Shown: positions 8,202-8,806 of the stretch, piece by piece
Layout of the letters: the number at the start of each line of letters is the position of its first letter
Position numbering within the stretch: position 1 is the stretch's first letter
NCBI GenBank assembly: GCA_964016885.1
Contig: CAXHJY010001209.1
Coordinates: 1 to 64,000 of the forward strand
Direction of reading: 5' to 3'
Source of the DNA: Eledone cirrhosa
Taxonomy: Eukaryota
Length of the DNA: 64,000 nucleotides
The notes under the pieces: model-generated
What the model saw: only the letters and a program-made list of their open reading frames with translations
Database searches by the model: none
What the model was told of the DNA's origin: nothing
Program-made: the position numbers and the translations under genes

Positions 8202-8253
<52 letters not shown>

Positions 8254-8257
8254 ATAT

Positions 8258-8343
8258 TACCTCCGACGGGACACGAACCCGCAATCCCCGGCTTAGGAGG
8301 CCGGTGCCTTATCCATTGTTCGTCTCTCAGAGGCCACTGGTTC
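8258..8343 (-). pseudogene. tRNA-Arg(CCT)-like sequence with a 13-nt D-arm insertion and unpaired acceptor stem
   Basis: Minus strand: ACCAGTGGCCT[CTGAGAGACGAAC]AATGGATAAGGCA-CCGGC-CTCCTAA-GCCGG-GGATT-GCGGG-TTCGTGT-CCCGT. Anticodon stem is perfect and the anticodon is CCT. Confidence 0.75.
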
Positions 8344-8437
8344 ACTGCCCCTAAACACGCTGTGACTTCTCTCTCCCACGTGTAGCTGGACAGTCAATTG
8401 TAAAATTCTCTTAGTGTTGTCTGAAATGTATAGCCTT

Positions 8438-8518
8438 ACACACGCTGATGAACCGAGACTAGACCATTTCTTTCAACAAATTTTTTGGTGAAACATATCT
8501 TTGGATTTGTACGTGTGT
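8438..8518 (+). ncRNA. Type I hammerhead ribozyme
   Basis: ACACACG-CUGAUGA-ACC...GGU-GAAA-CAUAUC[UUUG]GAUUU-GUA|CGUGUGU. 7-bp stem I, intact core, extended stem III, GUA triplet. Confidence 0.8.
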
Positions 8519-8771
8519 TATATAGTTATAAAGGTATTTATTTACGCTTTAATTTATATTTTTAATTATCGTGTCTATAGTCTGCCTTTCATAGGTTATA
8601 GATTCCATACACTGGTGGTTTTTTTCCCTGTATTATTGATAACGCACTGTATATCTCTCTCTGGTGTGTTACCTTCTCAACATATTGTATTTTAAAGAGC
8701 TCAGGATCACTTCTCCTTTGAGCACATTATTTACAGGGAATAACGAGGGCCTATGCCTCATTTAATTTATC

Positions 8772-8806
<35 letters not shown>

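Follow-up and report, generated by a model that had tools for sequence, protein, structure and literature searches.

In the window, the 64,000-base stretch of DNA that was analyzed, a TA microsatellite holds a piece of tRNA-Arg(CCT) sequence fused back-to-back with a single truncated copy of a very common repeat that bears a ribozyme. A preliminary description had treated 8251–8775 as a single composite element with a tRNA-like head. The sequence features themselves are real, including TA tracts on both sides of the insert, but the repeat family begins at 8318 and not at 8251, and the locus is a junction rather than a tRNA-headed element. This junction probably arose in one insertion, in which both nicked ends of the TA tract would have primed reverse transcription, one on the element RNA and the other on a precursor tRNA (pre-tRNA), and the two cDNAs would have been joined head-to-head. 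The product is most likely a dead one-off chimera, with no functional tRNA, promoter, or new element. Coordinates are collected in Table 1.

Table 1. Features of the locus and of related or neighboring insertions in the window.
Feature	Position	Strand	Remarks
Left (TA)n tract, insertion target	8214..8251	.	Microsatellite tract
Likely pre-tRNA 3′ trailer, 5-nt spacer plus TT	8251..8257	-	Presumed trailer; 8251 could also be target
tRNA-Arg(CCT) nt 13–73, 5′-truncated probable retrocopy	8258..8318	-	60/61 identity to natural genes
T in place of the genes' A at tRNA position 58	8273..8273	-	Likely m1A58 misincorporation
Head-to-head junction	8318..8318	.	1 base common to tRNA and repeat; loose ends before and behind 8318
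Repeat's own sequence, previously taken for a 13-nt insertion	8319..8331	+	Depth jump across junction
GGCCAC within repeat	8332..8337	+	Antisense of tRNA nt 7–12
Type I hammerhead motif	8438..8518	+	Predicted cut after 8511
High-copy repeat body, 5′-truncated, up to short 3′ end	8318..8690	+	Read matches
Optional 82-nt 3′ tail	8691..8772	+	In this copy and some others; absent from copies ending at 8690
Right (TA)n tract	8774..8802	.	Microsatellite tract
Second copy of hammerhead repeat, shorter	14488..14591	+	Tail-less, without tRNA, between TA tracts
Inserts of one family, tails 77–80 nt	14215–14406, 24286–24478, 45055–45244, 47843–48078		Inverted tail-less arm plus tailed arm
TA-flanked head-to-head insert	42242–42425		Hammerhead-like core at 42294, tail about 66 nt
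Fully symmetric inserts in TA tracts	26010–26314, 46869–47181		Near-perfect 305-bp palindrome; 313 bp with long inverted ends
SINE family 1	9396–9593, 15075–15273, 15528–15713, 22562–22748, 34393–34599, 39824–40011		Plus fragments
SINE family 2	4656–4856, 5847–6047, 32110–32293, 53600–53793		

Evidence on other copies of the two parts comes from reads and contigs of four public runs (X1, X5, X6, and X22) matched to the locus; of the runs with a small share, X6 alone was included. In run X1, summed contig depth is 135–366 over 8252–8305 and 30,074–59,432 over 8324–8377, a jump from 366 to 30,074 across the junction, and in run X22 raw-read depth is 2–3 in the tRNA part and 406–438 in the repeat, a jump from 2 to about 406. 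The tRNA part reaches about 1% of the repeat depth in these two runs, roughly 100-fold less; these depths cannot be read as copy numbers, and reads of the RAD type pile up at a limited set of loci. Before 8318–8320, one and the same repeat-specific upstream sequence is found in 326 reads of run X22 (86 and 240), in 7 contigs of run X1, and in 1 contig of run X5. Matches to the tRNA alone cover 8258–8318 and then enter a normal tRNA 5′ end (3 contigs of run X5 and 1 of run X6). The tRNA contigs of runs X5 and X6 carry differences at 2–7 positions, and the match of one X5 contig extends to 8254.

Since other repeat copies extend upstream in their own sequence and the tRNA matches lead into an ordinary tRNA 5′ end, 8318 marks a junction at which the two parts have one base in common. 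The 13-nt insertion that had been said to split the D-arm of the tRNA is repeat sequence, since other copies run upstream of 8318 in the repeat's own sequence; 8319–8331 and the GGCCAC that follows belong to the repeat family. The tRNA looks complete because this GGCCAC equals the antisense of its nt 7–12. The acceptor stem is unpaired, as had been noticed, and the reason is the loss of tRNA nt 1–12. A minimal hammerhead in the D-loop was also considered and rejected: the 13 nt are core-like but lack two core bases, and they belong to the antisense strand of the repeat.

The link between tRNA and repeat looks unique. Among the matches listed from the four public runs, no contig or read bridges the junction, and every loose end there is repeat-only or tRNA-only. 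The idea of a composite repeat family does not fit, as the repeat goes on upstream of 8318 with its own sequence in the four public runs and tRNA depth is so much lower. A small composite subfamily, in which tRNA and hammerhead move as a unit as in schistosome Sm-alpha, could be missed, its absence resting on the matches listed, and tRNA-derived hammerhead repeats do exist (PMC2770079, in the part available). It is nevertheless very improbable, given the loose ends among the matches listed, a tRNA depth in runs X1 and X22 that comes partly from the tRNA genes themselves, and a second window copy that has no tRNA.

An assembly chimera of a tRNA gene and a repeat copy would agree with the lack of a junction-spanning record among the matches listed. 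It too can be regarded as highly improbable, as a gene would keep A58 and its complete T-run and would then be followed by unique flank instead of (TA)n. It had been proposed that, if the tRNA-like part were never linked to this hammerhead elsewhere, chance juxtaposition would be indicated. The outcome is largely that there is no such link, but chance juxtaposition does not follow, because the two pieces meet directly inside a single TA tract with one base in common, their 3′ ends face outward, and apparent marks of an RNA template are found in the tRNA piece.

In Sm-alpha and Sj-alpha of schistosomes, tRNA and hammerhead lie on the same strand. These elements resemble the locus in having tRNA-derived sequence beside a hammerhead in an animal repeat, and they are presented in the available part of the source as family-wide SINE-like units (PMC2770079). 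Because the tRNA here is antisense, truncated, and present in one copy, being absent from other copies among the matches listed, a SINE or Sm-alpha-type unit with a sense tRNA head common to its copies is ruled out.

The minus-strand tRNA-Arg(CCT)-like stretch of the preliminary description is found again by Rfam as a tRNA at 8266–8325, with 24.1 bits and an E-value of 0.011, which falls below the gathering score of 29. ARAGORN calls no tRNA gene at the locus, nor anywhere in the 64-kb window. A functional tRNA was rejected on these scores and on the incomplete cloverleaf, in which nt 1–12 are missing. Intact A and B boxes are likewise absent, nt 1–12 being lost and A58 changed; the A-box region is presumably cut at nt 13, and the B-box presumably includes A58. 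Because of these two alterations, the divergent Pol III promoter that had been suggested is unlikely. A captured primer is also unlikely, because the CCA end that a tRNA primer leaves is absent: the discriminator is followed by 5 bases and TT, and then by the microsatellite. Elements of the Dada type insert into tRNA genes. Such an insertion, or any other insertion into a tRNA gene, was rejected, as the 5′ part of the tRNA is missing from the far side and unique flank is lacking.

For comparison with natural tRNAs, an exact 36-base pattern yielded 32 matches at 29 metagenome loci, which make up the 32 natural rows used here; these comparison genes are metagenome loci, and the host's own tRNA gene and trailer are not among them. 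ARAGORN calls tRNA-Arg(cct) at 28 of the 29 loci, including L002 and L010. The window piece equals three natural copies (two at L002 and one at L010) at 60 of 61 positions and departs from them solely at position 58 (8273), where it has T instead of A. A58 is kept in 31 of the 32 rows, the exception (L025) being a broken copy, while T65 is a natural variant found in 6 of 32. If the sole change were randomly placed, it would fall at position 58 with a chance of 1 in 61. The repeat arm differs from an X5 contig at 2 of 306 positions (8318–8623), which suggests that it is young, so that random changes are expected to be rare. Among the 16 rows that have the same isodecoder type, the T-run begins between +4 and +6 beyond the discriminator in 15 and exactly at +5 in 9; several of these rows come from the same locus.

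It has been reported, in the available part of one study, that m1A at position 58 of eukaryotic tRNAs causes mismatches in reverse transcription, which are low in C when G follows (PMC4787781), and the accessible portion of another describes the same m1A58 signature on pre-tRNA reads that bear trailers (bioRxiv 2026.05.17.725798). The tRNA piece likely derives from a precursor tRNA, that is, from an RNA template, and the change of A58 to T is likely a misincorporation by reverse transcriptase (RT) at m1A58; as a single base, it could be an ordinary mutation. T58 would be such a mutation if a stretch of a genomic tRNA gene had been patched in at the DNA level during repair of the insertion. A gene copy would likewise show the trailer and lack CCA, and one base is thin evidence. 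Nevertheless, the copy ends exactly at the expected end of a Pol III transcript, 2 T into the presumed terminator, and its sole change falls at position 58, which makes capture at the DNA level quite unlikely.

The plus-strand part of the insert, 8318–8772, belongs to a high-copy repeat that carries a type I hammerhead, and this copy is truncated at its 5′ end. This repeat has two alternative 3′ ends, at 8690 and at about 8772, the latter with the optional 82-nt tail. The shorter end is seen in 137 X22 reads that run from 8690 into AT repeats, and the copy at 14488 ends there as well. It had been noted that part of the sequence recurs independently, and this holds: 8584–8687 is found again at 14488–14591, between TA tracts, with 5 differences in 104. 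Insertion into (TA)n applies to both window copies and to the 137 reads that enter AT repeats. One X1 contig contains an opposite-strand joint in the repeat (8624/8712), the sole such contig for this family among the matches listed; in the window, inverted second arms are clear in other families. The repeat also appears in run X5, which is labelled as a different organism, at 99.3% identity over 306 bases and at low depth; a close relative, transfer, and cross-contamination are indistinguishable as its source there.

Known traits of Penelope-like elements (PLEs) include 5′ truncation, an inverted and truncated 5′ arm, a one-sided tail of 30–40 bp, and a bias toward microsatellites and (TA)n, and canonical hammerheads occur in PLEs except Naiads and most Chlamys (Craig et al., PMC8557442, in the sections available). 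The likeness of the locus to EN+ PLEs lies in the type I hammerhead, the 5′ truncation, the optional one-sided tail, the microsatellite target, and a probable inverted 5′ arm (PMC8557442, PMC4209133, PMC11167929, and bioRxiv 2026.07.22.740005, each in part). Here, in contrast, the inverted arm appears to come from a foreign RNA and not from a second element copy, the tail has 82 nt rather than the 30–40 nt published in those parts, stem III of the hammerhead is long and closed, the first pair of its stem II is A-U, and no ORF is seen. Pfam scans of 71 window translations (16 and 55, some overlapping) contained no RT or GIY-YIG domain, so the Penelope assignment rests on architecture, by which the hammerhead repeat is probably a Penelope-type element or a derivative of one. 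Exact-pattern scans of metagenome, viral, and prokaryote collections gave no match to the repeat. Non-LTR retrozymes are described in the available texts as tandem units that each carry a type I hammerhead (PMC7229834; bioRxiv 2026.07.22.740005), and the locus holds a single unit. Helenus/TRIM elements, as far as their description was available (PMC10886601), were rejected, with no LTRs, PBS, or PPT seen.

The plus-strand hammerhead stands as first described, with a 7-bp stem I. Its core comprises CTGATGA at 8445 and GAAA at 8490, and the cleavage triplet GUA ends at 8511. Stem II has 7 bp, including 2 G-U pairs, and stem III has 7 pairs counted with one T-T mismatch. The motif is the sole match in a descriptor scan of the window; in the shuffle control, a loose match arose in 3 of 200 and an equally strict match in 0 of 200. 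Rfam does not call a hammerhead in the window, neither at the gathering score nor at an E-value of 10. The catalytic fold is predicted at −13.8 kcal/mol, 1 kcal/mol above the minimum of −14.8 kcal/mol, and the ensemble probabilities of stems II and III are 0.02 and 0.13. Judged from this folding, the self-cleavage activity of this copy is uncertain. Among diverged copies of the repeat, GAAAC is kept in 184 reads and 18 contigs, and 2 contigs keep a CTGAGGA core; stem II varies between the copies, with loose ends at 8464 and 8498. Further hammerhead-core-like motifs are present in the window at 31381 (−), 47659 (−), and 22375 (+), the first of which combines a stem II of 5 bp with a minimal stem III and so resembles the minimal hammerheads of PLEs.

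Among the roles first suggested for the tRNA, that of an inverted 5′ arm fits the locus, as the tRNA is antisense at the 5′ end of the truncated repeat and directly joined to it. Seven inverted TA-flanked inserts were picked from a self-comparison of the window, with four other palindromic matches left out, and 5 of the 7 consist of an inverted tail-less arm and a tailed arm between TA tracts. By analogy, this common geometry supports a single-event origin of the tRNA-repeat junction. The family with 77–80-nt tails has further pieces at 4917–5057 and 50206–50276 and a palindrome center that varies between copies; its geometry is Penelope-like, and no hammerhead is seen in its arms. The core at 42294 has a palindromic stem III and fails the strict hammerhead scan. 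The two fully symmetric inserts are weakly related (74% over about 70 bp).

The biochemistry of PLEs bears on how such an insertion might form. In the available part of Frangieh et al. (PMC11167929), a PLE protein, a dimer by prediction, acts on AT-rich DNA, nicking both strands and extending them, and has two start sites, which define the tail; its RT initiates for the most part at internal sites of its own RNA, and weakly at RNA 3′ ends. If the junction arose in one insertion, an endonuclease would nick both strands of (TA)n. The bottom-strand end would use element RNA, priming where the tail starts, and its cDNA would stop at 8318. The top-strand end would use a nuclear pre-tRNA that carries m1A58, priming at the oligo-U end of this RNA; the RT would set A opposite m1A58 and stop at tRNA nt 13. 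The two cDNA ends would then join through 1 shared base. The pre-tRNA would stand in for the usual inverted arm, and the RT would probably be of the Penelope type.

The cDNA ends may have been aligned first by GGCCAC, 13 nt away from the junction. Such an alignment with 13 nt looped out is speculative, and it would account for the appearance of a complete tRNA with an interruption. In a post-hoc test, a random junction would have a 6-base match of this kind nearby with a probability of 0.4–1.1%. In calculated pairing of element RNA with tRNA, nt 1–13 give −14.3 kcal/mol at 8331 and nt 21–33 give −17.1 kcal/mol elsewhere; recruitment by RNA pairing at GGCCAC is not singled out, since this stronger pairing is available.

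Two separate events could also be envisaged, in which a tRNA retrocopy made by any RT entered the TA tract and the repeat then inserted beside it, deleting the 5′ 12 nt and the flank, or in which the order was reversed. TA tracts in the window are insertion hot spots, stand-alone retrocopies of tRNA and pre-tRNA are known (PMC2912911 and PMC4476161, both in part), and the RNA marks would be explained equally well. This origin is still fairly unlikely: no target bases lie between the tRNA piece and the repeat, both pieces are 5′-truncated at the same junction with their 3′ ends outward, which is the single-insertion geometry of the window, and an extra deletion is needed. A target-site duplication is unreadable within (TA)n at this single locus.

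Inverted chimeras of snRNAs and L1 have been explained by twin priming, and 7 of 30 snRNA copies were linked to retrotransposons, according to the available part of Doucet et al. 2015 (PMC4476161). They share with the locus an antisense small-RNA copy at the 5′ end of a truncated retroelement and the proposed explanation by second-strand priming on a separate RNA, and here the antisense small RNA is likewise joined directly at the truncated element's 5′ end. In those chimeras, as described in that part (PMC4476161), the driver is L1 and the RNAs are U1, U2, U5, and U6, 3′-truncated by internal priming. Here, the driver would be a hammerhead Penelope-like repeat in (TA)n, and the tRNA, apparently copied from its 3′ trailer, is complete at its 3′ end, truncated on the 5′ side, and changed at position 58.

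Tailless and pre-tRNA retropseudogenes were reportedly described by Schmitz et al. in 2004. As relayed in the available parts of PMC2912911 and PMC4476161, tRNA or pre-tRNA is reverse-transcribed in trans into a nicked target, and the copies are stand-alone and 3′-truncated, with target duplications. The tRNA copy at this locus is instead fused to a retroelement arm. Literature searches among openly accessible papers turned up neither an inverted chimera of PLE and tRNA nor a genomic retrocopy with an m1A58 footprint.

The making of the inverted arms of PLEs is described as undefined in the available part of PMC8557442. When an arm is made from a foreign RNA, neither a first cDNA that folds back nor the same RNA molecule can be its source. 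If the locus arose in one event, it would support nuclear priming in which each target strand independently uses an RNA of its own, and the inverted arm of such insertions could be made from a second, unrelated RNA. A wider reading, which is tentative and rather doubtful, is that Penelope-type integration is a two-RNA reaction, each nicked strand using its own template and the second template being any nuclear RNA with a free oligo-U end. If it were true, element-rich genomes would hold many inverted arms of pre-tRNA and other Pol III RNAs, and these arms would preserve, as fixed changes in the DNA, a record of m1A58 and other RNA modifications of the germ line. The RNA might be recruited or aligned by short pairing like that at GGCCAC, and fusions could seed elements that combine tRNA and hammerhead. 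The value of the locus lies in a mechanistic clue to PLE integration and in a cheap genome-wide test on inverted small-RNA arms that carry changes at modified positions.

The window as a whole is microsatellite-rich and animal-like, with 180 tandem-repeat rows and 28,239 of 64,000 bases masked. Rfam gave no match in the window at the gathering score, and its E-value scan across the window returned microsatellite noise. The metagenome contigs L005, L006, and L029 contain small eukaryote-type tRNA gene clusters (Val, Arg, Ser; Arg, Trp, Arg). A Mariner-like element at 41326–42219 has 103-bp inverted ends of 99% identity and TA flanks, and its ORF (41392–42189) matches HTH_48 and HTH_32. Two abundant tRNA-like SINE families, which presumably resemble octopus SINEs, also occur in the window, with B boxes in the usual sense orientation.
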